A stretch of DNA of 64,000 nt from an uncultured Acidobacteriota bacterium (GTDB lineage: Bacteria; Acidobacteriota; Vicinamibacteria; Vicinamibacterales; SCN-69-37): assembly GCA_963724645.1 (NCBI GenBank), contig CAVRVJ010000003.1, positions 1,141,074 through 1,205,073 on the forward strand. Reading direction: 5' to 3'. Under the pieces are notes generated by a model that worked only from the letters and a program-made list of their open reading frames with translations, did no database searches and was not told where the DNA came from. Position 1 is the first letter of the stretch. The number at the start of each line of letters is the position of its first letter. Below are positions 3,748 through 52,024 of the stretch, piece by piece. Both the position numbers and the translations under genes were made by a program.

Positions 3748-3926
3748 GGGGACGGGTTAGTTTTCCACAGATTCGGGGGGATTGGTGCCAGGTCTGCTGG
3801 GTCTTCCCTCGGTCGGCTCACCTGAATTGACCGGCGTCTTTGGCGGCTTCGTCCCGCCGACCGAAGGAAGACCCCAGCAGACCTGGCACCGATCCCCCCG
3901 AATCTGTGGAAAACTAACCCGTCCCC
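3748..3926. repeat. 179-bp near-perfect palindromic element (69/70-nt arms, 40-nt loop)
   Basis: Left arm 3748-3816 is ggggacgggttagttttccacagattcggggggattggtgccaggtctgctgggtcttccctcggtcgg. The right arm 3857-3926 is its reverse complement except for 2 substitutions and 1 indel. The element fills the apbE / SMP-30 intergenic space and overlaps the last 13 nt of apbE. Mirror-image peptides (GLVFHRFGGIGARSAG) appear in ORFs on both strands. Confidence 0.9.
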
Positions 3927-4888: not shown

Positions 4889-4937
4889 CGCGTTCCTCGT
4901 GCCTGTCGTATCTGTCGTACTCGTCTGTCCCTGGCTC

Positions 4938-8182: not shown

Positions 8183-8830
8183 ATGAGAACAGGATTTGCA
8201 GCGACGCTCCTGCTGACGGCCGTGGCCGCGACGGCGGAGGCTCAGACATTGAAACTGACGGAACGTCTCGTCTTCCGGGACGGAGATACGGGCGCGCCGG
8301 CGGCCGGCTGGCAGATGACCGCCGTCAAGAAGGATCGCGGACCGCACGCGGGCACGAGCGCGATCGTCTGGACGAGGTCTGACGCCGGCGTCCCGCCGGG
8401 GGGCACGGAGTATCGGCTGATCGGCGCGCCGGGCCTCGGCACGCTGCCGACCGTGGATCTGCTCGGAATCCACTACATCCGGGTGCAACCGGAGAAGGGC
8501 GCCGGTTTCGAGAAGTTCGTGACCGAGAAGTTGAACCCCACCGTCGGCAAACTGCGTCCCGACCTGCGATTCCTCTACTACAAGAGTCAGAACGCGCCGG
8601 ATTACATCTGCATTGTGGCGCTGACCAAGGCCTCGCGCGACAAGTACTGGCCGAACGGATCGGACTCAGACGATCTCAAGGCCGCCTTCACACCGGCCAT
8701 CAGGGCACTGGCAACCGAACTGCAGACCTATCTCGTGGACGGCACCTGGGGGACCGGGATGACTGCCCAGGTGTATGAGGCGAAGGAATGGGCCGACTGG
8801 GTGGTTGTCACCGGAGGAAAGGGACCATAG
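8183..8830 (+). CDS. hypothetical secreted protein
   Basis: ATG at 8183 is preceded by GGGAG (8171-8175) and starts the signal MRTGFAATLLLTAVAATAEA. The ORF-track start at 8108 overlaps the upstream gene start and was not used. No family recognised. Confidence 0.6.
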   Translation: MRTGFAATLLLTAVAATAEAQTLKLTERLVFRDGDTGAPAAGWQMTAVKKDRGPHAGTSAIVWTRSDAGVPPGGTEYRLIGAPGLGTLPTVDLLGIHYIRVQPEKGAGFEKFVTEKLNPTVGKLRPDLRFLYYKSQNAPDYICIVALTKASRDKYWPNGSDSDDLKAAFTPAIRALATELQTYLVDGTWGTGMTAQVYEAKEWADWVVVTGGKGP

Positions 8831-10980: not shown

Positions 10981-11328
10981 ATGTCTAGTGATCACAAGGA
11001 GACCGTCGAACTCCTCCAGGGAACGCTGGACCTGATCGTGCTGCGCGCGCTCCAGACCATGGGACCACAGCACGCCTACGGGCTGGCCGCGCGGCTCGAA
11101 CAGGTCTCCGAGAACCCTCTCCGCCTCAACCAGGGCACGCTGTATCCGGCACTGGTCAGGCTGGAGCAGAAGGGCTGGATCAAGGGCACGTGGCAACGAA
11201 CCGACACGAACCGTGAAGCCAAGTACTACGCGATCACGAGCGCCGGCCTTCGCGCGCTGGGCAAGCAGACAGAGCGCTGGCGCCGCCTGGCCGGCCTGGT
11301 CGACAGACTGCTCCTGAACGAGCCGTAG
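10981..11328 (+). CDS. PadR-family transcriptional regulator
   Basis: Intact 115 aa. LLQGTLDLIVLRAL...HAYGL...LNQGTLYPALVRLEQKGWI...W....N.EAKYY.IT..G is the classic PadR winged-helix signature. It sits 6 nt upstream of the permease gene, the arrangement typical of Acidobacteria. Confidence 0.9.
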   Translation: MSSDHKETVELLQGTLDLIVLRALQTMGPQHAYGLAARLEQVSENPLRLNQGTLYPALVRLEQKGWIKGTWQRTDTNREAKYYAITSAGLRALGKQTERWRRLAGLVDRLLLNEP

Positions 11329-11334
11329 AAGTCG

Positions 11335-14000
11335 ATGCGGCGTTTCCTTTCTCGGCTCTATCGTCTGGTTTGGCCGGCCCCGGCCGAATCAGATCTCTCC
11401 AGGGAACTCGCCTCTCATCTCACGCTCATCGAAGACGATCTGCGACGTCGCGGCGCCACGCCCGAGCAAGCGCACCGCGCGGCGCGCCTCGCCCTGGGCG
11501 GCGTCGAGCAGACCAAGGAGCTGCATCGCGACGCCCGCTCGTTCGTCTGGATAGAGGATGCACGTCGCGATTGCCGCCACGCCGTGCGGTTGCTGCGACG
11601 CCAACCGCTATTCACGTTGACGGCGACCTTGTCCCTCGCCATTGGCATCGGCGCCAACACCACGATCTTCACCGTGGCCAACGCCCTGCTCTTCCGGTCG
11701 CCAACCGGCGTCGCCGAACCGCGGCGGCTGGTCGACATCGGTCGAAGCCAGGGCGGCGGCGGCATCAACCCGATCTCCTATCCAAACTATCTCGACACGC
11801 GCGCACGCACGGCTGCTCTCGCCGGACTCTACGCCTACTCGATGTTTCCGCATGCTCTGAGTTTCGGCCCCGCCATCGCCACGGGAAATGCCGAGCGCGT
11901 CTTCGGCACCTGGGTGACGAACAACTACTTCGCCGTCCTTGGCGCCGTTCCTGCGGCCGGCCGATTGATCAGCCCAACCGACAGCGACCGCCCGGGCGCG
12001 AGTCCGGTCGTCGTGCTCAGTCATGGGTTCTGGATCGCCGATTCAACAGGGATCGGTCGATCGTCGGACGAACGATCGCTCTCGACCGGCGGCCGTTTAC
12101 GGTGATCGGCGTCGCCGCCGAAGGTTTCCAGGGGACGGGCGTTCGCGCGGGAGACGTCTGGCTCCCCGTGAGCATGATCGCCGACGCAAGGGGTCAGTCA
12201 CCGCCGATGCTCTCCAATCGCGGATCGGGCTGGCTGCTGGTGGGCGGCCGGTTGCAGCCTGGTGTCTCGATCGACCGGGCCGCGGCCGAGATGGACGGGA
12301 TCGGCCGCATCCTCGAGCGAGAATACCCAACCGAGAATCAGCACTTCGCGCTCCAGGTTCTGCCCTTATCTCCGGCGCCGGGCAACAACGGACCGATTGC
12401 GATATTTCTGGTGCTGCTCGCGGCGATCGTCTCGACGGTGCTCGCCATCGCCTGCGCCAACGTCGCAGGCCTGCTCACCGCGCGCGCCGCCGTCCGCCGT
12501 CGAGAGATCGCCGTGCGTATCGCGATCGGCGCGGGCCGCTCGCGGCTGATCCGGCAACTCCTGATCGAAACCGTCGTCCTGTTTGCGTTCGGAGGAGCGA
12601 TCGGTCTGGTCATGGCGAGAGGAATGACGTCGCTGTTCGTCTCCCTGCTTCCGGCGCTACCTTTTCCTGTCGCGGTGTCGCTTCCGCTCGACCTCAGTGC
12701 CGTCGCGTTCACCGCGGGAATCGTCTTCGGGGCCGCCCTGCTGGCCGGTCTCGCACCGGCCGTGCACGCGTCGAAAGCCGACGTTGTGACCGCGATCAAA
12801 GGCGAGCCACAAGCGGGCGGCCGGCTCTGGCTTCGTCAGGCATTCGTGATCGCACAGGTCGCCCTGAGTATCGTGTTGGTGGTCGTGGCGGGCCTGTTCG
12901 TGCGCGCGCTTCAGCGCGTCGGCTCGATGGATCCCGGCTTCGATCCGAGAGGCGTGGAACTCGCGCCTGTTGATCTGCCGCTGGCGGGCATCCCGAAGGG
13001 GACCGCTCCACTGGTGGCGCGCGACTTGGTGGATAGAGTCCGCCGGGCACCGCACGTGCAGAGCGCGACAATCGCGGCCGTGCTGCCCGGCGGCTTCGAG
13101 GGGATCGGCCTCGGCGGTCTCGGTGCGCCTGGCGTGACGGCGCCAGACGGATCACGCTTCATGTCGGCGGACTGGAACATCGTCGAACCGGGCTACTTCA
13201 CGACCCTGCGAATCCCAATCCTTGCCGGCCGCGATTTCACAGCCGCGGATGACGCCGCTTCTCCGAAGGTCGCCGTGATCGGTGAGGGAATCGCGCGCCG
13301 GTTCTGGCCCGGTGAGGAGGCCATCGGCAAACATCTGGTGCGGCGGGATTCAGGCGTCACGACCGACCTGCTCGTCGTCGGCGTCGCCCGGGATCCGAAG
13401 TTCGGCAGTCTGATCGACAGCACGACGGGTCTCTTCGTGTTCCTGCCTCTTCAGCAGGAGTACTGCCAGGCTGGACGACGATCGTGGCGCGATCGACTGA
13501 TGGACGGCGCATTGCGGACGAGATCAGGACGGCTGTGCTGTCGGAAGACCCGAATCTCTTCCTGGGACCACCGCAGACCGCGGAGGAGTACGCCTCGATT
13601 GGACTGTTGCCGCAGCGGGTAGCCGCCTCAGTTTGCCGGCAGTCTTGGCGTGGTCGGTTTGCTGCTGGCGGCCATCGGGATCCACGGCGTCGTCGCGTAC
13701 GGCGTCACCCAGCGAACGCGTGAAATCGGCATTCGGATCGCTCTAGGTGCCAGGCCGTTCGATATGCTCGCCATGATCCTGAAGCACGGGATGTCCTTCA
13801 CGACCATCGGCACGGTGATCGGACTGGCCCTCGCCGCCGCAGCGAGCCGCCTGCTGTCGAGTCTTCTCTTCGGCGTTCCGCCAATCGACCCCGTCACGTT
13901 TTCAGGAGCGGCAGTGCTGTTCGCCGTTATCGGCCTCGCCGCGTGCTATTTCCCCGCCCGCCGGGGGACGCGGATCGATCCGATGACCGCGCTGAAGTAA
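11335..14000 (+). pseudogene. ADOP-type duplicated FtsX/MacB-like ABC permease, 3 frameshifts
   Basis: N-terminus MRRFLSRLYRL...ESDLSRELASHL...D.ARRDCRHAVRLLRRQPLFTLTATLSLAIGIGANT. Frames change near 12032 (VVVLSHGFW / RRFNRDRSIVGRTIALDRRPFTVIGV), near 13458 (LPLQQE / LPGWTTIVARSTDGRRIADEIR) and near 13625 (LLPQRVAA / FAGSLGVVGLLLAAIGIHGV). It ends TQRTREIGIRIALGA...ARRGTRIDPMTALK*, the FtsX signature. Confidence 0.8.
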
Positions 14001-14050
14001 GGTCGGTCAGGCTCCGAACCGCGCCCCAAGGTCCACGTTTCGACCCCTGA

Positions 14051-14986
14051 TCACACCTTGAGCTGCTTCAGGAACGGCACGCTGGCCTTGGCGAGCTCGA
14101 AGTTCTGCTCGACGAAGAAGTTCTTCACGCCGCCGACTTTGGCCGCCTGGAACGTCTTGACCCAATCGATGCTGCCCTGCCCGATCGGCTTCTGCGGCCG
14201 GCCGCCACCCCGGCCGGCTCGACCCGCTGGCGCGCCCGGCGCAGGAGGCGGCGGAGGCGCTACCGGTGCGTTCATGTCGAGATCCTGGAGATGCATCGAG
14301 ACGAAGCGGCCCGGATATTTCGTGAAGTAGTCCGCCGCGACCAGGCCGCTCGTGATCGTGGACATCTGGAACTGGAATTTCACCAGCTTCGGATCGAGAT
14401 AGTCCGCCAGCATGATGTCGAAGACCCGTTTCCCATCGACCATCGACAACTCGAAGCCCTCGGTATGCAACCCTTGCTGGAGGCCTGCCTTGGCGGACAT
14501 TTCCGCGGCCTTGTTGTACTCGGCGGCCAGCCGCTTGACGTCATCCAGCGTTCCATTCCGCGGGCCATCCAGACTCGGCACGCAGATCTGGCTCAAGCCA
14601 CGGTCCTTCGCCCACTGAATGATCTTCGGCACTTCTTCACCTCGACACTCCGTCATGTCGACGTGCGCGCTCACCGCCTTCAGTCCGAGATCGCCGAGGA
14701 TCTTCTGAATCTCGGCGCCGGTGTATTTCTCCATGTCGGCCAGGCCGAAGTTGTGCTTGTTGTACCAGGGTGACAGGAGCTCCACAGTCTGGAAGCCGGC
14801 ATCCGCCACCAGTTTCATCGTGCCGCGAAAGTCGGTGTCGATCATCTTCGCGAGCGGAAAGATCTGAATGCCGATCGGCCAATCGTACGGGCTCGCGCGA
14901 AGCTCGGCGATGGTAGAAGCGAAGCCCGCAACCGCGACGCCGGTCGCAGTCTGCTTGAAAAAGTCTCGACGTGAGATCGGGGACAT
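14051..14986 (-). CDS. Tat-exported xylose-isomerase-like TIM-barrel protein (sugar phosphate isomerase/epimerase family), paralog 1
   Basis: ATG at 14986 is preceded by AAGGAG. The Tat motif is MSPISRRDFFKQTATGVAVAGFA. TIM-barrel-family segments include GFQTVEL, KAVSAHVDM and FFVEQ. The ORF-track N-terminal extension to 15289 is Arg-rich and was not used. A Pro/Gly/Arg insertion (NAPVAPPPPPAPGAPAGRAGRGGGRPQKPIGQG) lies before SIDW. Confidence 0.8.
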   Translation of the reverse strand: MSPISRRDFFKQTATGVAVAGFASTIAELRASPYDWPIGIQIFPLAKMIDTDFRGTMKLVADAGFQTVELLSPWYNKHNFGLADMEKYTGAEIQKILGDLGLKAVSAHVDMTECRGEEVPKIIQWAKDRGLSQICVPSLDGPRNGTLDDVKRLAAEYNKAAEMSAKAGLQQGLHTEGFELSMVDGKRVFDIMLADYLDPKLVKFQFQMSTITSGLVAADYFTKYPGRFVSMHLQDLDMNAPVAPPPPPAPGAPAGRAGRGGGRPQKPIGQGSIDWVKTFQAAKVGGVKNFFVEQNFELAKASVPFLKQLKV

Positions 14987-42405: not shown

Positions 42406-44433
42406 CTACTTCTTCCCTGCCGCGGCCGGACGTGCGGCAGGCTTGCTGAGAAACACGTACGTCCCGTACGCGCCCGACGTGGAGATGTCCGGTACGCCAT
42501 CCTTGTTCAGATCCATGACTTCGAAGCTGGAGCCAACGCCCGAACGGTTGTGCACGAGCTCCGGCTCAAAGCGCGCGCCGCCCGGCGCCTTGGGATCGCG
42601 CACGGTCTTGTAGATGTAGACCACCGCCGCGCCGTACGGATCCTCGCCGTTGTAGTTCTCGAGATGCGACCAGTAGCGCTTGCCCGTGACCATGTCGGGG
42701 ATGCCATCGCCAGTCATGTCGACGAAGCGCTGCGCGTGCGACTCCGAAAACACGACGTTGCCGGCGTTAGGAGTGGAGAAATCGTAAGCGATCGGGTGCT
42801 GGACGAATGTGCGGGTGCCATCGGCAGTCTTCTTCTGCTCGAACCAGTTGAGACCCCACGCATGCGCCTGACCGCCGACGACGTCAGCCAGACCGTCGCC
42901 GTTCACGTCGTAGACGCCGTACTCGCCGCCCCCATTGCCGAAAATCACGTTGTTGCCGAATTCCACGGCATGAAAGATCCACGGCGTCACGGCGATGCCT
43001 CCGGCCGGTTGCTCGAACCAGCCGAACGGCACTGCGACGTCCAGACGCCCGTCGCCGTTGACATCGCCCACGCCGATCCCGTGAGGCGGCACGGCCGGCT
43101 GCCCTTGCACGGAAATCGGATGCGACGTCCAGACGGCCGTCGGATTGGACGGATCCGGTTTGGCCCACGCATAAACGCCGCCGCCGCCGAAGATGATCTC
43201 CGGCGAGCCGTCCTTGTCGAGATCCTTCATCAGCACGATCTCGGTCGAGATGGTCGGCAGCACGCGGAATTTGGTCCATCGGCGCGACTCGCCTCTGGGG
43301 TTCACATAAAGATCCATCGGCCGGCCACCCGTCATCTCGGAGGACAGAATGTCGGGCCAGCCGTCGCCGGTGAAGTCGGCCGTCAGATTCACCATGTCCG
43401 GCGCGTACTCAGTGGCCGGGTTGTACACCCGCCCGTCGCGATAGATCTTCCGTTCGGTATAGCCCGGTCCAAGGAAATAGAAGGGCCCGGCGACGATATC
43501 GAGCGCGCCGTCATGATTGATATCCGAGGCGGCAGCCGACCAACCGTAGTACAGGCTGCTGATCCGCTGCGACGTGTAGCGGGTCCCCGTCTGCTCCTTC
43601 GGCTCGACAATCGAGTTCAAATCCTTCCAGGAAACGTCCTTGAATCGAACTTCGCCGGTCCCGCCGACATAGAACGCGATGGGTCCGTAACCCGACACAT
43701 TCTGTTCGTCGATCGGGGCGCTGCCGCCCGGGATCGCTCTGAAGGCTCCCGCCGAAACGATCACTTCGACCGGATTCCACTCGCCGGCCTTGAGCGCTGG
43801 TCCCGCTGCACGGCCGCCCCCGCCGCCACCGGCTGCTGCACCACCAGCGCGCGCGGCTCCGGCCCCTTGGGGCGCCGCAGCGCCGGCAGGCGCCGCGCCG
43901 GCAGGGACCGAGCTAGCAGGCGCCGCAGCGCCAGCAGGGGCCGCGCCAGCCGCCCGGCCCGCTGCGTTGCCGCCCCCCCCGCCACCGCCGCCGCCACGTG
44001 CTGGCGCCGCGATGCGATCGCGTGAAAGTTCCTTGCCCTGCGGGTCGAGCGTCACCGAATACGGCGCCAGATCCCCGTCGTTCAAGGACAGGTAGACGCC
44101 GCGCATGCCGGAGTCCGTCTTCTGCGCACGCAGCAGAATGCCCGACATGCACGTGCCCGTGCATCGGTAATTCACGAAGAAATCGACGTCCTGAAAACCC
44201 TTGTCCATCATCAGCCAGCCGCCGCTGCCGGCTTTCGCGGTGCCGATGAGCTCCCCGTTCTGGGCCTTCCATTCGGCGTCGCCGACGGTGTGCCAGCCCG
44301 CCAGCGTCGAGCCCTTGAAGACGGCATCGGCTTTGAAATTCGGCGGATCGGCGGCGCGAAGCACGAACACCATCGCGACAACGGCGACCGCTGCAGTCGC
44401 CAGGGAACGAACGAAGATGCGCTGATTCTTCAT
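42406..44433 (-). CDS. secreted DUF1080/LamG-like + FG-GAP propeller protein, paralog C (intact)
   Basis: ATG at 44433 follows GAGGA. The signal is MKNQRIFVRSLATAAVAVVAMVFVLRA. It is an uninterrupted 675 aa with the same domain order and seven D-x-N/D-x-D-G repeats. It serves as the template for the two frameshifted paralogs. Confidence 0.8.
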   Translation of the reverse strand: MKNQRIFVRSLATAAVAVVAMVFVLRAADPPNFKADAVFKGSTLAGWHTVGDAEWKAQNGELIGTAKAGSGGWLMMDKGFQDVDFFVNYRCTGTCMSGILLRAQKTDSGMRGVYLSLNDGDLAPYSVTLDPQGKELSRDRIAAPARGGGGGGGGGNAAGRAAGAAPAGAAAPASSVPAGAAPAGAAAPQGAGAARAGGAAAGGGGGGRAAGPALKAGEWNPVEVIVSAGAFRAIPGGSAPIDEQNVSGYGPIAFYVGGTGEVRFKDVSWKDLNSIVEPKEQTGTRYTSQRISSLYYGWSAAASDINHDGALDIVAGPFYFLGPGYTERKIYRDGRVYNPATEYAPDMVNLTADFTGDGWPDILSSEMTGGRPMDLYVNPRGESRRWTKFRVLPTISTEIVLMKDLDKDGSPEIIFGGGGVYAWAKPDPSNPTAVWTSHPISVQGQPAVPPHGIGVGDVNGDGRLDVAVPFGWFEQPAGGIAVTPWIFHAVEFGNNVIFGNGGGEYGVYDVNGDGLADVVGGQAHAWGLNWFEQKKTADGTRTFVQHPIAYDFSTPNAGNVVFSESHAQRFVDMTGDGIPDMVTGKRYWSHLENYNGEDPYGAAVVYIYKTVRDPKAPGGARFEPELVHNRSGVGSSFEVMDLNKDGVPDISTSGAYGTYVFLSKPAARPAAAGKK

Positions 44434-44661
44434 GACTGTCCTCGTTGACTCATTCGACCCAAATCCCGCCGGCGACACGATATCCCAACATCCGTCAACC
44501 GCCAATAAGTCAATGCGGCGTCGCGGCCAGCAACTAACATCATGGCGAGGGGAGCTAAGTCATTGGAAAACGGGGCGCAAGAGCGCTTGTCACCTGCCGG
44601 CCTTCATGCCGGCAGGCTGGGCCTGCTGCGTGCCAGGCCTTACGATGTCGCGGTGGGCCGG

Positions 44662-45690
44662 ATGGGGAAACCCGTGAGGCTGCTACTCGCCGCGATGGTC
44701 CCGCTCCTGATCCTCGCGACGCCATCCGCGCAGACGACTGCGCGGGTCGAGCGGGTCGAGCGTCGAGGGTTTCTCGGCTGCGGGATCGAGGCCGCGGTTC
44801 CAGGATTTGCAGACGTCGACGCCGCGGGCCGCTACCGCGGCCTGGATGTCGACATCTGCCGGGCGATCGCCGCCGCGTTCTTTGGTACGCCGGAAAGAAT
44901 CAGGTTCCAGCACGCGGGCACGATCACCGAGGCCCTTCGCAACGACGACATCGACGTCGTCGCGCGCCGGTTGACCTGGGAACTGCGCCGGGAACAGCCC
45001 TATGGCGTCCTGTTCGGGCCCGTGACGTTCTACGACGGGCAGACGTTTCTGGTCTCCAGAACGCTGGGCGTGGCAACGGCCCTTCAATTGTCCGGGAAGC
45101 CAATATGCGTGGCCGGCGGCGAGATCTTCGAATCGCAGCTCAACGCCTATTTCGAAAGTCATGGGCTCGCGCTCGAGAAGATCGTCCTCGAGTCGTCTCA
45201 TCAGTACGAGGCCATCGCCGAGGCCATGAACTCTGGTAAGTGCCGCGTCTATACTGGCGATGCGTCGGACCTTGGCGCCATCCGCAGCAAGGTGAGATCG
45301 CCGTCACAGTTTCAAATCCTGCAGGATCAGATTTCGAAGGAGCCGCTCGCCCCACTTGTGCGGAGCAACGATCCGAAGTTGTTCGAGATTGTGCGATGGA
45401 CGATCTTCGCGTTGATCAGTGCCGAGGAACTGGGTGTGACGTCGCGAAACGTCGATCAAATGCGGACCAGCCAGAACCTGGACGTCCGGCGCCTCCTCGG
45501 GGTGATGCCAGGCAATGGCAAGGCGCTCGGTCTCAGGGAAGATTGGGCGTACGACGCGATCAAGGCTGTGGGGAATTACGGTGAGATTTTCGAGCGGAAT
45601 CTTGGCTCCTCGAGTCCGATCAAGTTCGATCGCGGATTGAACCGGTTGGCGAAGGATGGCGGCCTTATGTACGCGCCGCCGCTCCGGTAG
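44662..45690 (+). CDS. periplasmic amino-acid ABC transporter substrate-binding protein (AapJ/BztA-like family 3), orphan
   Basis: Signal MGKPVRLLLAAMVPLLILATPSA, then RGFLGCGIEAAVPGFA..D.AG.YRGLDVDICRAIAAAFFG, TFYDGQTFLV, DPKLFEIVRWTIFALISAEELGVTS and WAYDAIKAVGNYGEIFERNLG. No permease or ATPase genes are adjacent. Confidence 0.75.
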   Translation: MGKPVRLLLAAMVPLLILATPSAQTTARVERVERRGFLGCGIEAAVPGFADVDAAGRYRGLDVDICRAIAAAFFGTPERIRFQHAGTITEALRNDDIDVVARRLTWELRREQPYGVLFGPVTFYDGQTFLVSRTLGVATALQLSGKPICVAGGEIFESQLNAYFESHGLALEKIVLESSHQYEAIAEAMNSGKCRVYTGDASDLGAIRSKVRSPSQFQILQDQISKEPLAPLVRSNDPKLFEIVRWTIFALISAEELGVTSRNVDQMRTSQNLDVRRLLGVMPGNGKALGLREDWAYDAIKAVGNYGEIFERNLGSSSPIKFDRGLNRLAKDGGLMYAPPLR

Positions 45691-45726: not shown

Positions 45727-46158
45727 TTATTTGACGGCCGCGCCTACCGGATCGAGCACGAACGTGTCGAGTTGCACCGCGCCCATCTTGTTTGGGACCT
45801 TGGGCGCGTTCACGAGCTTGTAACCGGGTTTGGTGATGCTCACCTCAATCTGCGCCGGATCCACGGTCTTGCCGGCACCCTGGATCGCCTTGCCGATGTC
45901 GGGGCTGCGGAAGTGTCCGGGGGCATCATTGCGGAACGGGAACGTCAAGCTCGCGTTCTTGGCGGTGATCGTGACCATCACCTTATCGACGACGTTGCCT
46001 TTGCTGTCCTTGATGTTGCCAAAGTAGTACAGGACGACTTTACCGTCGTTTTCAGCCTCGAAGAACTCGGCGCCGTTGGCCTGAACCCTGAGGCTGCGGG
46101 CCGATACGGCGAGCGCGAGCACACCGAGAAACATCGCGAATCGCGCCGCTCGTTTCAT
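45727..46158 (-). CDS. small secreted protein, possibly carboxypeptidase-regulatory-like beta-sandwich
   Basis: Intact 143 aa. Signal MKRAARFAMFLGVLALAVSA. The G.I.D..GN.V....V.I..........ND.PG.F....I......ITKPGYKL pattern is suggestive only. Confidence 0.5.
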   Translation of the reverse strand: MKRAARFAMFLGVLALAVSARSLRVQANGAEFFEAENDGKVVLYYFGNIKDSKGNVVDKVMVTITAKNASLTFPFRNDAPGHFRSPDIGKAIQGAGKTVDPAQIEVSITKPGYKLVNAPKVPNKMGAVQLDTFVLDPVGAAVK

Positions 46159-46253: not shown

Positions 46254-46583
46254 CTAGTAAAACCAGCGCCGCTCGTACACCAGAATGCCGATCAGCAACG
46301 CGACGGGGAGGTACCAGACCCAGCGCTCCGATAGCCGGTCGGCCCACCTGGCTGGAATGGCGAACGCGAGCATCAGGCTGATGACCGCCGCGCCGAAGAG
46401 CCAGCTGTACCAGAGAATCGCGGGACCCGCGGCCTGAAGCGGCAGATTCTCGCGGCGGAATCCGCCCAGGACCGGGTAGTACCGAAACATGGCCACTTTG
46501 TAGAACTCGCTGTACAGAAAGAACCCGACGTACGTGAATCCGTAGGCAATCGAGAACACGTTGAACCGCGCGTATTGGTTCAC
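46254..46583 (-). CDS. small membrane protein (about 110 aa), last gene of the amine-oxidase operon
   Basis: A GTG at 46581-46583 overlaps the upstream stop (GTGA). Hydrophobic segments include FNVFSIAYGFTYVGFFLY, ILWYSWLFGAAVISLMLAFAI and WVWYLPVALLIGILVY. The ORF-track start at 46718 lies inside the upstream gene and was not used. Confidence 0.55.
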   Translation of the reverse strand: MNQYARFNVFSIAYGFTYVGFFLYSEFYKVAMFRYYPVLGGFRRENLPLQAAGPAILWYSWLFGAAVISLMLAFAIPARWADRLSERWVWYLPVALLIGILVYERRWFY

Positions 46584-47047
46584 GGGAAGAGCCCCTTGAT
46601 GTTGTTGAGGACCTCGCCCACCAGGAAGTTCCACCAGACGATGAATGCGAGAATCCAGGTGAGGTACTTCCGCGTGGCCACATATTGCTGCGCCAACGGC
46701 GTCCGCCAGAATCGCCAATAGACCGGCAGAAGGCCGAGGCCGACGGCGGCGAAATGTTCCTTGATCTCGAAAATGCCGTTGGCGGCCCGCAGCTGCAGGT
46801 CCTCCAGTGCCGGCCGGACGTCAACTCGATAGCGCGGGTATAGAAACGCCCCGAGGACCGCACTGATCGCAAAGAGCAGCGTGATGGTGTTGGTGAACGC
46901 CATCGAGTTCACGCCACGAAACCTGTCCACCAGATTTCGCGACGTCGCGGCAGGCCGGCGTCTGGCGACGCTGAACGCCTGATGAGTGATGGCGCCGAGC
47001 AGCGCCACCGAGATGAGCACGTGAAGAATCAGGAGGACTTGAATCAT
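46580..47047 (-). CDS. small membrane protein (155 aa)
   Basis: ATG at 47047 overlaps the amine-oxidase stop (ATGA). About four hydrophobic helices are present: MIQVLLILHVLISVALLGAITH, ITLLFAISAVLGAFLY, HFAAVGLGLLPVYW and YLTWILAFIVWWNFLVG. Confidence 0.6.
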   Translation of the reverse strand: MIQVLLILHVLISVALLGAITHQAFSVARRRPAATSRNLVDRFRGVNSMAFTNTITLLFAISAVLGAFLYPRYRVDVRPALEDLQLRAANGIFEIKEHFAAVGLGLLPVYWRFWRTPLAQQYVATRKYLTWILAFIVWWNFLVGEVLNNIKGLFP

Positions 47048-48537
47048 CGCTGCGCAGACACCGTCCCAGCCTCTGCGGCCAGCACCTCGCGCGCCGCGCG
47101 CTCGCCGGATTCCAGAGCTCCTTCCATCCATCCCATCCACGGCGACGTGTGCTCGCCGGCGAAGTGGAAGCGGTCCTCACTCCGGGCAATGGCAGGCATC
47201 AACGACGTCATCTGGCCGCGATGAAAGACGGCAAAAGCACCGCGGGACCACGGTTCCTGCGCCCATCGTATCGCCGTTCCCTTTTCGAAATGCGCCCGCA
47301 TGTTGGGGAACGTTCTGCCGACCAGGTCCACGCCGAATTGTATGGCGTCCAGTTGACTCATAGCGCCGACCCGATCGCCAATGGCGCCGCCCGCTGTCGC
47401 ACCAAGCACGCCGCGATTGGCGGGCAAGTCATAGGTGCAGTCCCAGATCTCCGCGGGCTGATCCGTGCGCGCCGAGCCGTTCAGGCCCGATTGCTCCCAG
47501 AATCGGGACTTCGATTGCAGCAGAAACCTGACGGCAGGGAAATAGGGCAGTGTCGCAATCGCCGCCGCCTTTCCGCGGGACAACGACGGCCGGACGTCGA
47601 TTCGACGAAGCGTAGAGAACGGAATCGCGAGAATCACGCGGGCGGCAGCGAGCGTCTTCGCTGTCCCCTGCTCCTGATAGCTCACGCGAACCCCGTGCGA
47701 GGTGAGATCCAGGCGCGTAACGACCGCGTTGTAGCGCACAGAAGAACCAAGAGACCGCGCCATCGCGCTCGGAAGCAGCTCCATCCCGCCTTGAATCTTG
47801 TAGAACTGATCGGACGTCCGTAGAAGCGCAAACTGCCGCAGCAGATAAAGCGCGGAGAGCTGGCTCGAGTCTCCGCCAAGCGTCATCAGTGTGATCGCGC
47901 CAGGCGACGCCCCACGGGCGCGAAGCCATTCCGGCCAGGTCAGGCGATCGTAGGGCTGCCAACGCACGTACGAGTCGACAGCCGGCGTCGTCTCGGCCAG
48001 GTCGTCGGGAATATCCGCCGTGTATCGGCCGAGCAGCGCGCCCTGACTCAGGCCGGCCTCGTCGGTCCTGACTCCCAACCGGGCGCCCAGCGCGCCGAGT
48101 TCGTCCGGCGAGCGCACGGTCAGGCCGTGAGCGCTCACGAGTGGTGAGCCGTCGGCGGAAGCGAAGGGCATCAGCACCAGGCCGTGCTCCCGGGCGAGCT
48201 GCAGCACGCGTTGATGCGCACCCGAAATGCGGATTGCCCCGGCCTCCGCGTGCAACCCGTCGTTGAAGACGCTTCGAATGGTTCGCACCCTGCCACCAGG
48301 CGAGCTGCGCGCTTCGAGCACCATTACACGCTGACCGGCCTTCTTCAGTGTGTCCGCGGCATGGAGTCCCGCAAGACCCGCACCGATCACGACGACTGGA
48401 TCGGGCGGCGGTTGCCGCGCGCCCGCAAGTGAGGCGAGAACCGGCGCGGCGAGTGTCGAGAGAAGAAAATGACGGCGGGTGGACGGGGGCGGGTGTCGAA
48501 TTGTGGAAAACTCGTTCAGGTCAGCCGAGTTTTCCAC
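47044..48537 (-). CDS. Tat-exported flavin-containing amine oxidase family protein
   Basis: Intact 497 aa. The Tat motif is STRRHFLLSTLAAPVLASLAGA. The FAD dinucleotide fold is VVVIGAGLAGLHAADTLKKAGQRVMVLEARSSPGGRV. The C-terminal FAD segment is FHFAGEHTSPWMGWMEGALESGERAAREV. The GTG start (48535-48537) lies inside the palindromic element. Confidence 0.8.
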   Translation of the reverse strand: MENSADLNEFSTIRHPPPSTRRHFLLSTLAAPVLASLAGARQPPPDPVVVIGAGLAGLHAADTLKKAGQRVMVLEARSSPGGRVRTIRSVFNDGLHAEAGAIRISGAHQRVLQLAREHGLVLMPFASADGSPLVSAHGLTVRSPDELGALGARLGVRTDEAGLSQGALLGRYTADIPDDLAETTPAVDSYVRWQPYDRLTWPEWLRARGASPGAITLMTLGGDSSQLSALYLLRQFALLRTSDQFYKIQGGMELLPSAMARSLGSSVRYNAVVTRLDLTSHGVRVSYQEQGTAKTLAAARVILAIPFSTLRRIDVRPSLSRGKAAAIATLPYFPAVRFLLQSKSRFWEQSGLNGSARTDQPAEIWDCTYDLPANRGVLGATAGGAIGDRVGAMSQLDAIQFGVDLVGRTFPNMRAHFEKGTAIRWAQEPWSRGAFAVFHRGQMTSLMPAIARSEDRFHFAGEHTSPWMGWMEGALESGERAAREVLAAEAGTVSAQR

Positions 48538-48555
48538 AATTCGACACCCGTCCCC
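48485..48555. repeat. 71-bp palindromic element (30-nt arms, 11-nt loop) related to the 3748-3926 element
   Basis: The left arm is gggggcgggtgtcgaattgtggaaaactcg (48485-48514). The right arm is cgagttttccacaattcgacacccgtcccc (48526-48555), with one mismatch. It shares the terminal GGGGACGGG/CCCGTCCCC and the GTTTTCCACA/TGTGGAAAAC core with the element at 3748-3926. Confidence 0.85.
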
Positions 48556-49143
48556 TTATTGTTGAAAACTCAGAATGGTCGTCGGCGGAGCCGTCGGCAC
48601 GGTTGGACGAAGAAATGGCAACCCCGCCGCGGCGTGGCAGCTGTGACAGGCCGTCAATGCCTGCTTGTACGCCGACACGAAGGCGGCGCTGTCCTGGTCC
48701 TCGATTGCGATCTGGACCGTCGCAAAGGCGGTCGGATTAATCGAGTCGAAGATCCCTTTGATATTGACCGTCCCGCCGCCGGGCAATTGGCGAACCGGCC
48801 GAATCAGCACCGTCCATCGCACGGCCTGGCGGGACTCATTGAAAAAATATGTCGCCAGCGGCCAGTTCTTCTTCTCGGCGGCGAACCACAAGTTGGCCCA
48901 GTGGTAGCCGACGTCATGCATCGTGTGGGACTGGACTGGAACGATCTTCTTCAGTTGATCGACGTCGGCCGCAAGTCCGGCGGCTGGCGCCGCGGTCTGT
49001 GCCGCGGGCGTCGCGACTGCATGCTTGACGAACCAGTACTCGACGGCCATCCCACCGACGATGGCGCCGATGATCAGCGCGGACAGGACGGCCAGAGCAC
49101 TGACGGCTGGCTTCCCGGCCCGCGGAAGATCGGCCTCAGTCAT
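48556..49143 (-). CDS. membrane-anchored protein with C-terminal CxxCH (class II / cytochrome c'-like candidate)
   Basis: Intact 195 aa. The anchor is AVSALAVLSALIIGAIVGGMAV. The body is predicted to be helical. A single heme motif, LTACHSCHAAAG, lies about 30 aa from the C-terminus. The ATG overlaps the upstream stop (ATGA at 49140-49143). Confidence 0.55.
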   Translation of the reverse strand: MTEADLPRAGKPAVSALAVLSALIIGAIVGGMAVEYWFVKHAVATPAAQTAAPAAGLAADVDQLKKIVPVQSHTMHDVGYHWANLWFAAEKKNWPLATYFFNESRQAVRWTVLIRPVRQLPGGGTVNIKGIFDSINPTAFATVQIAIEDQDSAAFVSAYKQALTACHSCHAAAGLPFLRPTVPTAPPTTILSFQQ

Positions 49144-49556
49144 TTCCTGGCAAGAGACCTGATGTAGTTAATCGCGTTCCAGATGTCGGGGTCGGGGATA
49201 CGGCCGTCCCACGGCGCCATCATGGTCGGCGGAATGCCTTTCTTGATGACCGTGAAAATCTCGCCATCGGTCGAACCGTAGTCCCACTTGTCGTCGGTCA
49301 GATCGGGCGGTTGTTTTCCGCCCTGGTCCTCGATGACCGAGATGAGCACCCCGGCCTTCTCCGCGCCTTGAGCCAGATTGCCGTGGCAGCCGGCGCAATT
49401 CGCGTCGTATGTCTTCTTGCCGGCCGCGATCGATTCAGGCGTCGATGCGACAGGGTTCTTGACCTTGGCCGCTTCCGGATCACCCTGGCGGGCAACCAAA
49501 CTGACGCCGAGCACACCAACGGCAAGCGCGAATACGAACGCCGGCGATAAGAACAT
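49140..49556 (-). CDS. class I mono-heme cytochrome c
   Basis: The chosen start is MFLSPAFVFALAVGVLGVSLVA at 49556. Features are GKKTYDANCAGCHG, a distal Met region (IPPTMMAPW) and IWNAINYIRSLA. The ORF-track extension to 49931 is Arg-rich and overlaps the upstream gene. Confidence 0.8.
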   Translation of the reverse strand: MFLSPAFVFALAVGVLGVSLVARQGDPEAAKVKNPVASTPESIAAGKKTYDANCAGCHGNLAQGAEKAGVLISVIEDQGGKQPPDLTDDKWDYGSTDGEIFTVIKKGIPPTMMAPWDGRIPDPDIWNAINYIRSLARK

Positions 49557-49566
49557 GTGAATTCCG

Positions 49567-51834
49567 TTATTTCGCCAGCGGGTTCGGGCGGACCTGGAAG
49601 TGCACCGCCTTGCTGGTCGTGCCTTTCCCGCCCTCATTGTGCCAGGGGTTGCGGTTCGCCCATCCGGTCCAGAGACCGCGGCCCTTCCAGCCAGCGTTCG
49701 CGTCGTCGATTCGGCCGTTGACCGATTTCGCGTAGAAGCCGAGCGGATACGGGACGCGGAGGACCGTCCACTTTCCCGCGTCGCCCTGAGCGCCGGCAAC
49801 CGCGGGCTTGAGCGCGAGCAGCGCGCCGCCCTGGTTGCTCGTCGCGATCTGAACGTTGTCGCCGAGGCCGAGCGAGTTGTACTTGTCGGACCAGTTGTAA
49901 TAATTCGAGTCCGCTCTCGCCGGATACACATCGCCCTTGAAGTTCGGGCCGGGCACTGGATTCAACGTCCAGCCTTCCGGACACTTATTACCTTTGTCAG
50001 CGTCGGGGCCGTTGAGCGGTCCCTTGCACTTCCGACGATCGAAACTCGCCAGGTGGCCGCTGGCCAGGACGGTCCACGCGACGCCGTCCTTGTCGACGTC
50101 GCCTCCCCGCGGTCCGAAGCCAGGCTCCGGCACATTGTAGATCTCGGTCAGGGCCGTCGAGGGCGGATTCGCGCCCGGTGCGACGCGAATGAGGAAACCA
50201 GGTGACCCGGTCGTCGTGCACCACACGCTGTTGTCCGCGGGGCTGACCATGACCGCGTAGCAAGAACCGCCGACTTTCGTGTCCTTTGTTGGATCCGGCG
50301 CCGCGGCCGCGGCCGGAGCCGCCGCGGGAGCTCCAGGCGCTGCAGCGGCAGCCGCGCCGCCTCGTCCACCCCCTCGCCCGCCGCCACCACCGCCCGCCGC
50401 CGGGGCGTTCACTTCATCTCGCTTGCCGTTGCCGTTCGTGTCGACGACGAAGTCGGTCCAGGTCTGGGCCTTCGCGGCGTCTCCTGTCTCATCCCAAATC
50501 TTCGTGCTGAACCAACCGACGTAACCGCCGCTGCCGGACACCATCGAGTTGTTGGGCGCGTCGTACGCCATGTTCAAGTGGAACGAGCCGAAGCACGAAT
50601 CGGCGAACGACCATGTCTTCGTCTTCGGATCGTAGATGGAGAACTTCCGTCCGCCGCGACCTCCGGACGGAAACGGTGCAATCTTGGCTGCCGGATGCAG
50701 ATTGCCGTCTGAGCAGAAGGGCAACATGTCATTTGTCACGCCCGTATTGGTCGTGTTCCACACGCGACCCTTCTGATCCATCTCGTTGCTGTGGCCGCTG
50801 GTGATCTGGTTCCAGATGACTTCGTTGCCCCAATAGGGCGAGTTGTACCCGCCGCGCCCACCGGGTGCCGCCGTACCAGCTTTCGGGCTCCTGGGAATCG
50901 TATCTTCGCCCCAGCTGTTGTTCACCGGATCGACCCAGGTCAAGTGATCGGACGAGTTCTCGTGAAGTCCGAAGACCAGGCCGTTCGGACTGACCTTTGG
51001 ATCCCGCTTGTCACTGGCGACGACGTCGTGGAAGTACTCACGCGGATCGGCCCAATCCCATTGGGTGATGACGACGTTGCGCTCGGCGCCCTGCGGCCGG
51101 GCCGGCTTTTCGAACGGCGTTTCGCCCTTGGCGATGCGCTCGGTCCAGTCGGCGAACATCTTTCCGGCACGCTCGCGGCCGAGCGAAGTGAGGACGCCGT
51201 CCATGTTGCTGCCGTCAGGTCCGTACTTCACGCGGTCGTACCACGCCTGAAGATGGTTTCCAGTGGGCAGGCCGGGCGACAACTCGCGCGTCGGCTTGTT
51301 GCCGATCTGATGGCAGGAGATGCAACTGTCGGTGTTGAGCGTTCGATGCCATGTCTGCGGATTGGTGCCGGCGTTCGCCCCAGGCTCGTTGATCGGGAAC
51401 TCGTTCTTCTTCGGAAGGTTCAACATCGCGAACCAGTAGTTCGCCGGATAGACCTGGGCCGCCGCTTTTTCGTCGGGCGCCACTGTCGCCTTGAGGTTGA
51501 GGACCTTGCCCGGCGTGCCCGCGACCTTCGCTGAGTCGACGAGGCCATAGCCGCGCACAAACACCTGATATGTCGCCTTCGGCAAATCGGGAATGACGTA
51601 CCGACCCTGATCGTCGGTGACGACGATCTTGCTGAAGCCGGTTTTGAGCTCCTTCGTCTCCGCGATGACCCACACGCCGGCTTCGGGTCCTTTCGCACTG
51701 GTGACCACACCGCCGATGTCGTCGGCGTCGATGGCCGGCGCCGCGGCGTTCTGAATCGCGCCAATCCCAGCGAGCGATCCGGCCGCCAAGGCCGCGAGGT
51801 ATATCCCTGACTGCAACCATTTCTTCGTCAACAT
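49567..51834 (-). CDS. large secreted protein: carboxypeptidase-regulatory-like N-domain, one CxxCH heme motif, uncharacterised C-terminal body
   Basis: Intact 755 aa. Signal MLTKKWLQSGIYLAALAAGSLAG. The beta-sandwich signature is GGVVTSAKGPEAGVWVIAE...VVTDDQGRYVIPDLPKATYQVFVRGYG. The heme motif is NTDSCISCHQIG. A Gly/Arg/Ala tract (NAPAAGGGGGGRGGGRGGAAAAAAPGAPAAAPAAAAAP) lies in the C-terminal half. Confidence 0.65.
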   Translation of the reverse strand: MLTKKWLQSGIYLAALAAGSLAGIGAIQNAAAPAIDADDIGGVVTSAKGPEAGVWVIAETKELKTGFSKIVVTDDQGRYVIPDLPKATYQVFVRGYGLVDSAKVAGTPGKVLNLKATVAPDEKAAAQVYPANYWFAMLNLPKKNEFPINEPGANAGTNPQTWHRTLNTDSCISCHQIGNKPTRELSPGLPTGNHLQAWYDRVKYGPDGSNMDGVLTSLGRERAGKMFADWTERIAKGETPFEKPARPQGAERNVVITQWDWADPREYFHDVVASDKRDPKVSPNGLVFGLHENSSDHLTWVDPVNNSWGEDTIPRSPKAGTAAPGGRGGYNSPYWGNEVIWNQITSGHSNEMDQKGRVWNTTNTGVTNDMLPFCSDGNLHPAAKIAPFPSGGRGGRKFSIYDPKTKTWSFADSCFGSFHLNMAYDAPNNSMVSGSGGYVGWFSTKIWDETGDAAKAQTWTDFVVDTNGNGKRDEVNAPAAGGGGGGRGGGRGGAAAAAAPGAPAAAPAAAAAPDPTKDTKVGGSCYAVMVSPADNSVWCTTTGSPGFLIRVAPGANPPSTALTEIYNVPEPGFGPRGGDVDKDGVAWTVLASGHLASFDRRKCKGPLNGPDADKGNKCPEGWTLNPVPGPNFKGDVYPARADSNYYNWSDKYNSLGLGDNVQIATSNQGGALLALKPAVAGAQGDAGKWTVLRVPYPLGFYAKSVNGRIDDANAGWKGRGLWTGWANRNPWHNEGGKGTTSKAVHFQVRPNPLAK

Positions 51835-51900
51835 ATGGACTCCCTCATCTCTTCCGGGTCGTGCAGAATTCGTGTGTAACCGAGGATGCTAGCACCAGAT

Positions 51901-52020
51901 CAGGCCCCAGGCCCTAGGCCCAGGGCCCAAGTTTCCGGACTCCGCTCCGCGGTCCCATCCTCCTCGGGCGTCGGGCAGGGCGTCTTCACGTGGGCCTTGG
52001 GCCTTGGGCCCTGGGGCCTG
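51901..52020. repeat. inverted arrays of GC-rich heptamers (about 30-nt arms, about 59-nt spacer) just downstream of the nucleoside transporter stop
   Basis: The left arm is caggccc caggccc taggccc agggccc aag (51901-51931). The right arm is tgggcct tgggcct tgggccc tggggcc tg (51991-52020), an imperfect reverse complement. The arm ends 5 nt from the stop at 52025. Confidence 0.7.
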
Positions 52021-52024
52021 CTCT

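Follow-up and report, generated by a model that had tools for sequence, protein, structure and literature searches.

A putative periplasmic L-amino-acid-oxidising gene cluster with c-type cytochromes and conserved small membrane proteins in an uncultured Acidobacteriota bacterium

Where do the electrons go when a flavoenzyme that is exported from the cytoplasm oxidises its substrate? The question is raised by a gene cluster in an uncultured Acidobacteriota bacterium of the order Vicinamibacterales (SCN-69-37; assembly GCA_963724645.1). The window, i.e. the whole stretch of DNA analysed, comprises 64,000 nucleotides of contig CAVRVJ010000003.1 (positions 1,141,074 to 1,205,073 of the forward strand). 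Its minus strand carries genes for three predicted c-type haem proteins (g1, g2 and g3), a flavin amine oxidoreductase with a twin-arginine (Tat) motif (g4), two small membrane proteins (g5 and g6) and a small secreted protein (g7), numbered in minus-strand order; a gene for an amino-acid-binding protein converges on them. Loci of other genomes or metagenomes used for comparison have L-numbers. An initial annotation, made from the sequence, had suggested that the flavoenzyme, in partnership with periplasmic cytochromes and dedicated membrane subunits, is a dehydrogenase feeding the respiratory chain, or belongs to an unknown redox pathway. As a whole the cluster is best explained as a periplasmic L-amino-acid-oxidising system that acts as a dehydrogenase, a reading to which we assign a probability of about 0.5. 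The cluster is modular and not a fixed seven-gene machine, because the cytochromes are not obligate and the membrane set occurs without the oxidase.

The predicted exported flavoenzyme and its gene neighbours

The product of g4 matched the Pfam family Amino_oxidase (PF01593) with 198.7 bits (cut-off 19.8) over residues 55-486 of 497. An NAD_binding_8 match (E 2.1e-12) and the FAD-binding motif VIGAGLAGL were also present, and by sequence g4 belongs, over its full length, to the flavin amine oxidoreductase superfamily. In a sequence search of the Protein Data Bank (PDB) the best solved relatives were vertebrate and ancestral L-amino-acid oxidases (LAAOs; E 1.5e-51). The top 12 PDB sequences (E 1.5e-51 to 1.9e-37) were all LAAOs or LAAO ancestors, 5ts5 being labelled just 'amine oxidase'; NicA2-type enzymes matched at about 1e-22 and the Rhodococcus LAAO at 1e-17. 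R103 of g4 (in AGAIRI) aligns with the GAMRIP motif of LAAOs and Y332 with their HY, and both residues were unchanged in 12 orthologues. We take their counterparts to be Arg90 and Tyr372, the alpha-carboxylate ligands of snake-venom LAAO. The N-terminus reads TRRHFLL, then a hydrophobic stretch, then AGA-RQ. Twin arginines ahead of a hydrophobic stretch were found in 13 of 13 g4 orthologues examined, from three phyla; the Pfam model TAT_signal gave no score on the window protein itself. The GTG at 48537 is the sole plausible in-frame start upstream of the arginines. An exact-sequence look-up of g4 returned no match. The initial annotation had called g4 a Tat-exported flavin amine oxidase. Superfamily and Tat motif stand, yet g4 appears to be of LAAO type and not a generic amine oxidase.

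Which genes does this enzyme keep at its side? Metagenome contigs were scanned with an oxidase profile. In Acidobacteriota, Gemmatimonadota and Alphaproteobacteria 27 oxidase orthologues (43-66% identity) had sufficient DNA downstream, and g5 adjoins about 25 of these; on contigs that extend far enough, g6, g7 and the binding protein mostly occur as well. No partner gene was seen beside any of about 20 oxidase paralogues (at most 36% identity). Two oxidase loci are without g5-g6. In L062 (3057-3180) the last g6 codons are kept after the oxidase stop, and in L065 (974-1383) g5-g6 are lost and g7 follows the oxidase after about 250 nt. g1 and g2 accompany the oxidase in close relatives alone, g3 in the subset nearest to the window. 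Seen from the oxidase, g5-g7 and the binding protein are thus near-obligate partners, and the one-electron carrier varies by lineage. Where cytochromes and membrane subunits alike had been named as partners of the oxidase, this holds for g5-g7, which are near-constant, and not for g1, g2 and g3, which are not obligate.

The alphaproteobacterial loci have the order binding protein (divergent), oxidase, g7', g5, g6, g7, i.e. g7 is duplicated. Beyond the binding protein lies a gene for a thiamine-pyrophosphate (TPP) enzyme of 660-690 amino acids (aa) with TPP_enzyme_N/M/C domains and a Tat signal (Table 1). A small class I cytochrome c follows it in L034 and L070; none was identified in L041. TPP enzyme and cytochrome together suggest a two-step periplasmic oxidation, in which the amino acid would be converted to the 2-oxo acid and this to the acid and CO2. 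Export of a TPP enzyme is in itself unusual. In L050, a metagenome-assembled genome (MAG) of Gemmatimonadetes, the place of a cytochrome is taken by a sulfocyanin-like cupredoxin with a SoxE domain, encoded immediately ahead of the oxidase gene. A g1 homologue and a pyrroloquinoline-quinone-type glucose/sorbosone dehydrogenase are located beyond the binding protein of that locus. That one-electron carriers adjoin the orthologous oxidase in other lineages, a cytochrome in L034 and L070 and a cupredoxin in L050, supports the dehydrogenase reading. Within the flavoprotein amine oxidoreductase (FAO) superfamily, those enzymes that combine a Tat signal with a neighbouring cytochrome c gene were found in tests to be cytochrome-c-dependent dehydrogenases of poor O2 reactivity (PMC12224317). 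g4 carries the same two marks, a Tat signal and an adjacent operonic cytochrome c gene; its start is 18 nt from the end of g3, and g2 is one gene further upstream on the same strand.

From these data we infer export, electron path, substrate and any role of g5-g6-g7 as follows. g4 would fold with FAD in the cytoplasm and then be exported via Tat. It would act on an L-amino acid, the products being ammonium and the imino or 2-oxo acid; the substrate may be a basic amino acid because the binding protein resembles Lys/Arg/Orn binders. The reduced flavin would be re-oxidised by a co-encoded c-type cytochrome and not by O2. The likeliest acceptor would be the membrane-anchored g3, followed by g2, with electrons passing onward to a terminal oxidase. 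g5-g6-g7, in this lineage joined by the membrane helix of g3, would constitute a separately conserved membrane-associated module. The oxidase would depend on it as a docking or anchoring platform or as an electron-entry device, and g1 would be a second periplasmic haem-c enzyme using the same module.

Alternatively, g4 might be a plain H2O2-forming periplasmic LAAO which serves ammonium release or delivers antimicrobial peroxide, the cytochromes being unrelated to it or removing peroxide. Its closest solved relatives are, after all, true oxidases. Tat-exported oxidases exist, the Tat-only FAOs being fast oxidases (PMC12224317), and an amino-acid-binding protein suits nitrogen scavenging. Many orthologue loci have no carrier gene; however, three kinds of one-electron carrier recur beside orthologues in three phyla, and in the lineage of the window overlapping or near-overlapping junctions tie the cytochrome genes to the oxidase. 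Nor do g1-g3 resemble any known peroxidase. On balance a plain oxidase appears unlikely to us.

The neighbourhood was also viewed from g5. One genome per GTDB species was scanned with a g5 profile and the window proteins were then mapped onto the resulting 44 loci by tblastn. These loci belong to Acidobacteriota, Gemmatimonadota and Alpha-, Beta- and Gammaproteobacteria. g6 was present in 32 of the 44 (plus a divergent copy in L040 seen by inspection), g7, after g6, in 26, and the binding protein, in convergent or divergent orientation to the cluster, in 22, apart from its occurrence at most oxidase loci. The oxidase g4 was found in 17, g1-like genes in 16, g3 in 15 and g2 in 11. The g1-like matches were at most 7 kb from g5 and three times directly upstream of it. 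The gene order as first read in the window is conserved elsewhere: g1-g2-g3-g4-g5-g6 is complete in seven GTDB species (L007-L011, L021, L047; Acidobacteriota or Vicinamibacterales by label), and also in L051, a contig from a metagenome, and L131, a near relative. In the acidobacterial loci L023 and L025 g3 is directly followed by g5 without an oxidase. In Betaproteobacteria a g1 homologue lies directly upstream of g5 (L039, L040), in L048 with a class I cytochrome c in between; L040 consists of a g1 homologue, g5, a g6-like and a g7-like gene, without oxidase or binding protein. Seen from g5, the oxidase is one of several alternative neighbours, and g1-family haem-c propeller proteins recur near g5 far above chance.

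Other surroundings of g5 are of a different kind. In Rhodospirillales MAGs (L016, L018, L027, L049) g5, g6, g7 and the binding protein are placed amid relA/spoT, rpoZ, a gene for an NYN-domain protein and smpB, with no oxidase or cytochrome nearby. In three proteobacterial loci (L026, L028, L033; around 3000-7800) g5-g6 come after genes for an extracytoplasmic-function (ECF) sigma factor, a short FecR-like protein, a TonB-dependent receptor and a PiuC-like hydroxylase. These surroundings are of the iron-uptake type and include no oxidase. In further Proteobacteria g5-g6 follow major facilitator superfamily (MFS), amidohydrolase or TctC genes. Possibly, then, g5, g6, g7 and the binding protein serve the capture or transport of amino acids or products, or signalling, and the oxidase is just co-regulated. 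The oxidoreductase-free Rhodospirillales sets and those next to ECF sigma, FecR-like and TonB-receptor genes would fit. Yet seven membrane helices with no large permease or ATPase are unlike any known binding-protein-dependent transporter, and the vicinity of g1 homologues (within 7 kb in 16 of 44 species) argues for a link with periplasmic redox proteins. We consider such a non-redox unit improbable.

Membrane proteins, haem proteins and the proposed electron path

The g5 family comprises 1421 homologues in 636 clusters at 50% identity, all of them stand-alone proteins of about 155 aa, and was found in 44 GTDB species of four phyla. It had no consistent Pfam match among 32 members and no NCBIfam or PDB match, and no relation to the described cytochrome b or quinone reductase families was detected. 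An exhaustive search of representatives gave no informative domain fusions; longer matches were mis-called N-terminal extensions. A model calculated by AlphaFold2 (AF2) from a shallow alignment was poor (pLDDT 56, pTM 0.34). In g6 the aromatic motifs FRYYP, GPxILWYxW and RRWF are conserved; no conserved His, Cys or Met was present in the alignment. g7 has the conserved motifs ANG(G/E)EFF at the mature N-terminus, YFGxIKD and PGHYRSP. Neither Pfam, NCBIfam nor PDB contained relatives of g5, g6 or g7, apart from a single weak CarboxypepD_reg match of g7 (E 8.6e-4). The initial annotation had not recognised the large haem protein g1 and the two membrane proteins as members of characterised families; profile hidden Markov model and PDB searches likewise gave no characterised family for g1, g5 and g6.

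Is g5 itself an electron carrier? Among 54 full-length representatives, His was present at position 9 in 50 of 52, at position 22 in 45 of 53, at position 98 in 42 of 53 and at position 145 in 35 of 48 sequences. H9, H22 and H98 are situated on membrane helices; position 145 is Glu in the clade of the window and His in most of the family. Electrons might then run from g4 via g5-g6 to the quinone pool. g4 would be an L-amino-acid:quinone oxidoreductase and g1-g3 a separate haem system that shares the neighbourhood or the module. Four mostly conserved His on the membrane helices of g5 are in line with this, but they contain no strictly invariant pair, with Glu at position 145 in the window clade, and g6 offers no candidate cofactor ligands. 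Across three phyla no other neighbour of the oxidase comes close to g5 in constancy, whereas g1, g2 and g3 are lineage-restricted; on the other hand, g5-g6 were lost at two oxidase loci, and g5 has no detectable kinship to cytochrome b or quinone reductase. A 30-bp hairpin exactly between g3 and g4 could split two expression units, and Slr0782 of Synechocystis provides a precedent (PMC2652061). Taken together, we doubt that the quinone route applies.

A broader proposal takes g5-g6-g7 as a small, hitherto unrecognised membrane module which, in four or more phyla, would link periplasmic oxidoreductases of various kinds, exported by Tat or Sec, to the respiratory chain, i.e. as a new electron-entry or docking complex. 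It would serve LAAO-type flavoenzymes and the g1-type haem-c propeller family, and in Acidobacteriota the anchored g3 would join in. A docking or electron-entry role at the membrane is suggested by the tight link of g5-g6-g7 to the oxidase, to g3 and to g1 homologues. In this generality the proposal is a tentative one and has the odds against it.

The binding protein resembles the Lys/Arg/Orn-binding subfamily TIGR01096 of NCBIfam (E 1.4e-35, below cut-off), and Pfam SBP_bac_3 is recorded on its orthologues. The mature protein has about 340 aa; its true start is probably an internal Met at about 44662, ahead of a hydrophobic signal sequence. No gene for an ATP-binding cassette (ABC) permease or ATPase was found near it. 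A transporter of g5-g6 and binding protein akin to the tripartite ATP-independent periplasmic (TRAP) or tripartite tricarboxylate (TTT) types was considered and rejected, as a large permease subunit is missing.

We then come to the haem proteins which, in the dehydrogenase reading, would take over the electrons. The sequence of g2 places it among the class I cytochromes c. It scored above the Pfam cut-offs of Cytochrome_CBB3 (53 bits, cut-off 27) and Cytochrom_C (46 bits, cut-off 21.3). Besides the haem motif CAGCH it has a distal-Met region (PPTMMAPW) and an N-terminal hydrophobic signal or anchor; partial NCBIfam matches to ccoP- and MoxG-type cytochromes were all below cut-off.

g3 has 356 homologues, nearly all unnamed. 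M75, C166, C169 and H170 were invariant in 21 sequences, the CxxCH (C166-x-x-C169-H170) being near the C-terminus. Against the cytochrome c' family of Pfam (Cytochrom_C_2) the window protein reached E 0.29 and 12.5 bits at a cut-off of 26.5. Matches to this family over the haem motif in 14 of the 21 family members were weak (best E 0.014) and all sub-threshold. A PDB profile search returned a non-significant match to the class II cytochrome c 4cx9 over the CxxCH (E 0.94). The spacing of Met75 and His170 is 95 residues. In the verified sequence of cytochrome b562 from E. coli the same spacing separates Met7 and His102, its haem ligands; hhalign found no relation between the g3 family and this b562. 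The membrane helix of g3 has a conserved G26-x-x-x-G30-G31 followed by E35-Y36-W37 (GAxxGGxxVEYW). This conservation suggests a real anchor which packs against other helices and is not a cleaved signal. g3 is thus a putative membrane-anchored, low-spin cytochrome c of class II-like (four-helix-bundle) type.

Three parts make up g1, with a beta-sandwich at the N-terminus (about residues 40-118), a beta-propeller at the C-terminus and, between them, a helical region for a single haem c. It belongs to a family of more than 8000 homologues with no name beyond 'carboxypeptidase regulatory-like'. The carboxypeptidase-regulatory-like domain of the initial annotation is below threshold in Pfam (PF13620 CarboxypepD_reg, E 8.4e-7, 29.7 bits, cut-off 32.3). 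The PF13620 label is precomputed on most g1 homologues, residues 40-118 were modelled as all-beta with pLDDT >90, and the CISCH motif is as described. C171, C174, H175 and M211 were invariant in 25 homologues (54-79% identity), and the CxxCH also in proteobacterial homologues at 47-48% identity; M211 is a candidate for the distal haem ligand. The AF2 model of g1 (pLDDT 76, pTM 0.81) had its best Foldseek match in the PDB with virginiamycin B lyase (Vgb; 2z2n, E 3.8e-9, target-normalised TM 0.75, 9% identity). No Vgb_lyase model of Pfam or NCBIfam matched g1, and the likeness to Vgb is one of fold alone. The family carries conserved Cys pairs which, like the N-terminal beta-sandwich, are specific to it. 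A cytochrome c peroxidase was considered for g1 and ruled out by the single haem, the propeller fold and the absence of a matching family.

Two side observations concern the g1 family. In the acidobacterial locus L002 two g1 paralogues (3626-5887 and 11229-14743) flank the oxidase cluster, the second being followed by a 383-aa Cytochrome_CBB3-type protein. Gly/Ala/Pro-rich low-complexity inserts occur in g1 (around 50310-50400; residues about 480-508, pLDDT <50 in the model) and in a 699-aa FG-GAP protein of the window (around 43790-44095). They are missing in most homologues, and the L002 homologues carry similar ones elsewhere.

The three c-type haem proteins of the initial annotation were borne out. 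All three sites are supported because they are conserved, with CxxCH invariant in g1 and g3 and g2 above the Pfam cut-offs, and we infer covalent haem in g1, g2 and g3 from these motifs.

Several points weigh against cytochrome-dependent amino-acid oxidation by this cluster. FAO enzymes with a Tat signal and without a nearby cytochrome are fast oxidases, and O2 reactivity is unreadable from sequence (both PMC12224317). A dedicated cytochrome is not universal, because many oxidase-g5 loci have no carrier gene; in L053, L054, L058, L061 and L063 neither a cytochrome nor a cupredoxin gene was found in the available 2.5-5 kb of upstream DNA. g3, the proposed acceptor, is below the Pfam threshold for cytochrome c'. 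The His positions of g5 are 73-96% conserved, with no strictly invariant pair. Finally, g5-g6-g7 may have a role other than redox because the set is found oxidase-free beside housekeeping genes or iron-uptake-type regulators and receptors.

Junctions, palindrome and surroundings of the cluster

A seven-gene operon had initially been announced for 46254-51834. This interval holds six genes, and six were also listed; the seventh, g7, begins 95 nt beyond position 46254, in the same direction and with conserved synteny. In all other respects, i.e. gene order, 10-nt spacer, ATGA and GTGA overlaps, palindrome, CxxCH motifs and Tat motif, the locus is as described. The spacer (cggaattcac) separates g1 and g2; ATGA overlaps are found at g2/g3 and g4/g5 and a GTGA overlap at g5/g6, suggesting translational coupling. 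That the open reading frames are real and not due to chance follows from their many homologues (1421 for g5, 356 for g3, more than 8000 for g1) and the invariant CxxCH in g1 and g3. The features are collected in Table 1.

Table 1. Coordinates of the cluster genes and of related features in compared loci.
Feature	Locus	Coordinates	Strand	Length	Characteristics
g1	window	49567-51834	minus	755 aa	secreted; weak CarboxypepD_reg match, single CISCH
g2	window	49140-49556	minus	138 aa	class I cytochrome c, CAGCH
g3	window	48556-49143	minus	195 aa	N-terminal membrane helix, C-terminal CHSCH
Palindromic element	window	48485-48555	minus		30-nt arms, 11-nt loop
g4	window	47044-48537	minus	497 aa	Amino_oxidase E 2.9e-58, motif TRRHFLL
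g5	window	46580-47047	minus	155 aa	membrane protein, four predicted helices
g6	window	46254-46586	minus	110 aa	membrane protein, about 3 helices
g7	window	45727-46158	minus	143 aa	secreted, probably small beta-sandwich
Amino-acid-binding protein	window	44542-45690	plus		SBP_bac_3; convergent on cluster
Region of Tat-signal TPP enzyme and cytochrome	L034	755-3194	minus
Region of Tat-signal TPP enzyme and cytochrome	L070	996-3360	minus
Tat-signal TPP enzyme	L041	2205-4184	minus
Cupredoxin	L050	4379-4927
Region of g1 homologue and glucose/sorbosone dehydrogenase	L050	9396-12889

The g3-g4 junction is no simple tight coupling, as the start of g4 is inside the 5' arm of a hairpin. The palindrome follows immediately on the g3 stop codon, and g4 takes its GTG start and its first 17 codons from it. 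Its arms are 97% complementary, the calculated RNA fold has -56.2 kcal/mol (z-score -8.25) and it is unique in the window. The near relative L131, whose g1 is 97% identical, has the palindrome at the same place (8470-8540), with a compensatory G:C to C:G swap, the single mismatch repaired and an unrelated loop. Between window and L131 the coding DNA on the flanks has diverged clearly more than the arms have. In more distant relatives the palindrome is absent, and the oxidase N-termini are much shorter ahead of the twin arginines. Because of this pattern the element looks like a lineage-specific insertion, its stem under selection, that now supplies the g4 start. A palindrome as a conserved feature of every g3-g4 junction was rejected since L131 alone shares it. 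Since the stem borders on the g3 stop and includes the start of g4, translation of g4 could depend on ribosomes that finish g3; or else the palindrome could be an element of mRNA stability or processing. At the same junction a different relative, L008 (4299-4360), carries a self-complementary 20-nt unit, CTTCCGCCTTTAGGCGGAAG, twice. The pair has the look of a REP-like element, and palindromes seem to be readily acquired at the g3-g4 junction.

Upstream of the cluster are genes for an MFS nucleoside-symporter-like protein, a lactate permease and a TonB-type outer-membrane protein, downstream genes for FG-GAP/DUF1080 proteins; neither side has an obvious relation to the cluster. A sigma-70 promoter scan found no site, terminator-like sites were no commoner than chance, and an Rfam scan of 44-54 kb returned no RNA family; a search for RNA-seq runs covering the locus found none. 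Between the MFS transporter gene and g1 there are 190 nt with an imperfect inverted repeat (51897-52024), whose 25-nt arms are 80% complementary, 78 nt apart and rich in GGCCC/GGGCC. This repeat may serve termination or regulation and delimit the cluster at its start.

Comparison with known systems

An exported flavin amine oxidoreductase that acts as a dehydrogenase with an operonic cytochrome c is already known. The dehydrogenase idea is not new because of NicA2/Pnao and CycN, more than 100 predicted cytochrome-c-using cases in the FAO superfamily (PMC12224317) and the Tat-LAAO-cytochrome c cluster of Gluconacetobacter diazotrophicus (PMC5053998). New here are the LAAO-branch enzyme and the anchored, apparently class II-like cytochrome, the near-obligate link of the oxidase with the small-protein triad g5-g6-g7 and an orphan amino-acid-binding protein, and the recurrent link of the triad to the huge unnamed haem-c propeller family of g1. 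Should g4 use cytochromes, the flavin amine dehydrogenases, a class recognised only recently, would reach beyond the NicA2/Pnao clades into the LAAO branch and into abundant soil phyla (Vicinamibacteria, Gemmatimonadota). Soil bacteria would then respire external amino acids in the periplasm and gain ammonium and energy without substrate import and without peroxide. Three sizeable families that have no assigned function, those of g1 with over 8000 homologues, of g5 with its 636 clusters at 50% identity and of g3, acquire a testable context, and the constant pairing of the oxidase with g5-g6-g7 leads to a specific hypothesis of how exported flavoenzymes are wired to the membrane.

Among known haem proteins, cytochrome cd1 nitrite reductase and quinohaemoprotein dehydrogenases share with g1 the general architecture of a c-haem domain and a propeller. 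The g1 propeller superposes best on Vgb, at 9% identity and with no match to Pfam Vgb_lyase. With the class II cytochromes c (c', c556) and b562, g3 has in common the helical make-up, the C-terminal CxxCH and an invariant Met early in the soluble domain; it differs by its N-terminal anchor with GxxxGG and is below every curated threshold.

For the flavoenzyme, vertebrate and snake-venom LAAOs (1f8r, 1reo; ancestral 9rum) are the best whole-enzyme sequence match (g4 residues 43-485), with the FAD-binding and carboxylate Arg/Tyr motifs in common. They differ in being secreted, H2O2-forming eukaryotic oxidases without Tat signal, cytochrome or membrane partners. Comparable in proposed function is the L-arginine dehydrogenase Slr0782 of Synechocystis, an LAAO homologue that feeds the respiratory chain (PMC2652061). 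Slr0782 and AoxA of Synechococcus are of the LAAO family, prefer basic amino acids and have been proposed to use membrane electron transport; AoxA has a twin-arginine motif as does g4 (PMC2652061). The likeness to g4 is by description, and unlike in the g4 cluster dedicated cytochromes or small membrane subunits are not reported for them.

The lao-cccA-ridA cluster of G. diazotrophicus (PMC5053998) also combines an LAAO with Tat signal and a cytochrome c gene. Mutants in this LAAO lose the tryptophan-derived product indole-3-acetic acid (PMC5053998), and so do cytochrome c maturation mutants, as cited in that paper. The enzyme is of the Rhodococcus opacus LAAO type, and g4 matches the R. opacus structure at E 1e-17. 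RidA is a partner there and g5, g6 and g7 are not reported, whereas no ridA-like gene was noted in the window cluster.

Further precedents are NicA2/Pnao with CycN and the other cytochrome-c-using FAO dehydrogenases (Akram et al., 2025; PMC12224317), some of which pair with membrane-bound c4-type cytochromes. A term search of this paper turned up no partners resembling g5, g6, g7 or the binding protein. Unlike NicA2, g4 is in the LAAO branch (E 1e-51 versus about 1e-22) and keeps the alpha-carboxylate ligands, and the window cluster has cytochromes of its own, the anchored, apparently class II-like g3 and the class I g2. Common to these dehydrogenases and g4 are PF01593, the Tat signal and an operonic cytochrome c, and with them the same proposed logic, i.e. 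that electrons are passed to the respiratory chain and not to O2.

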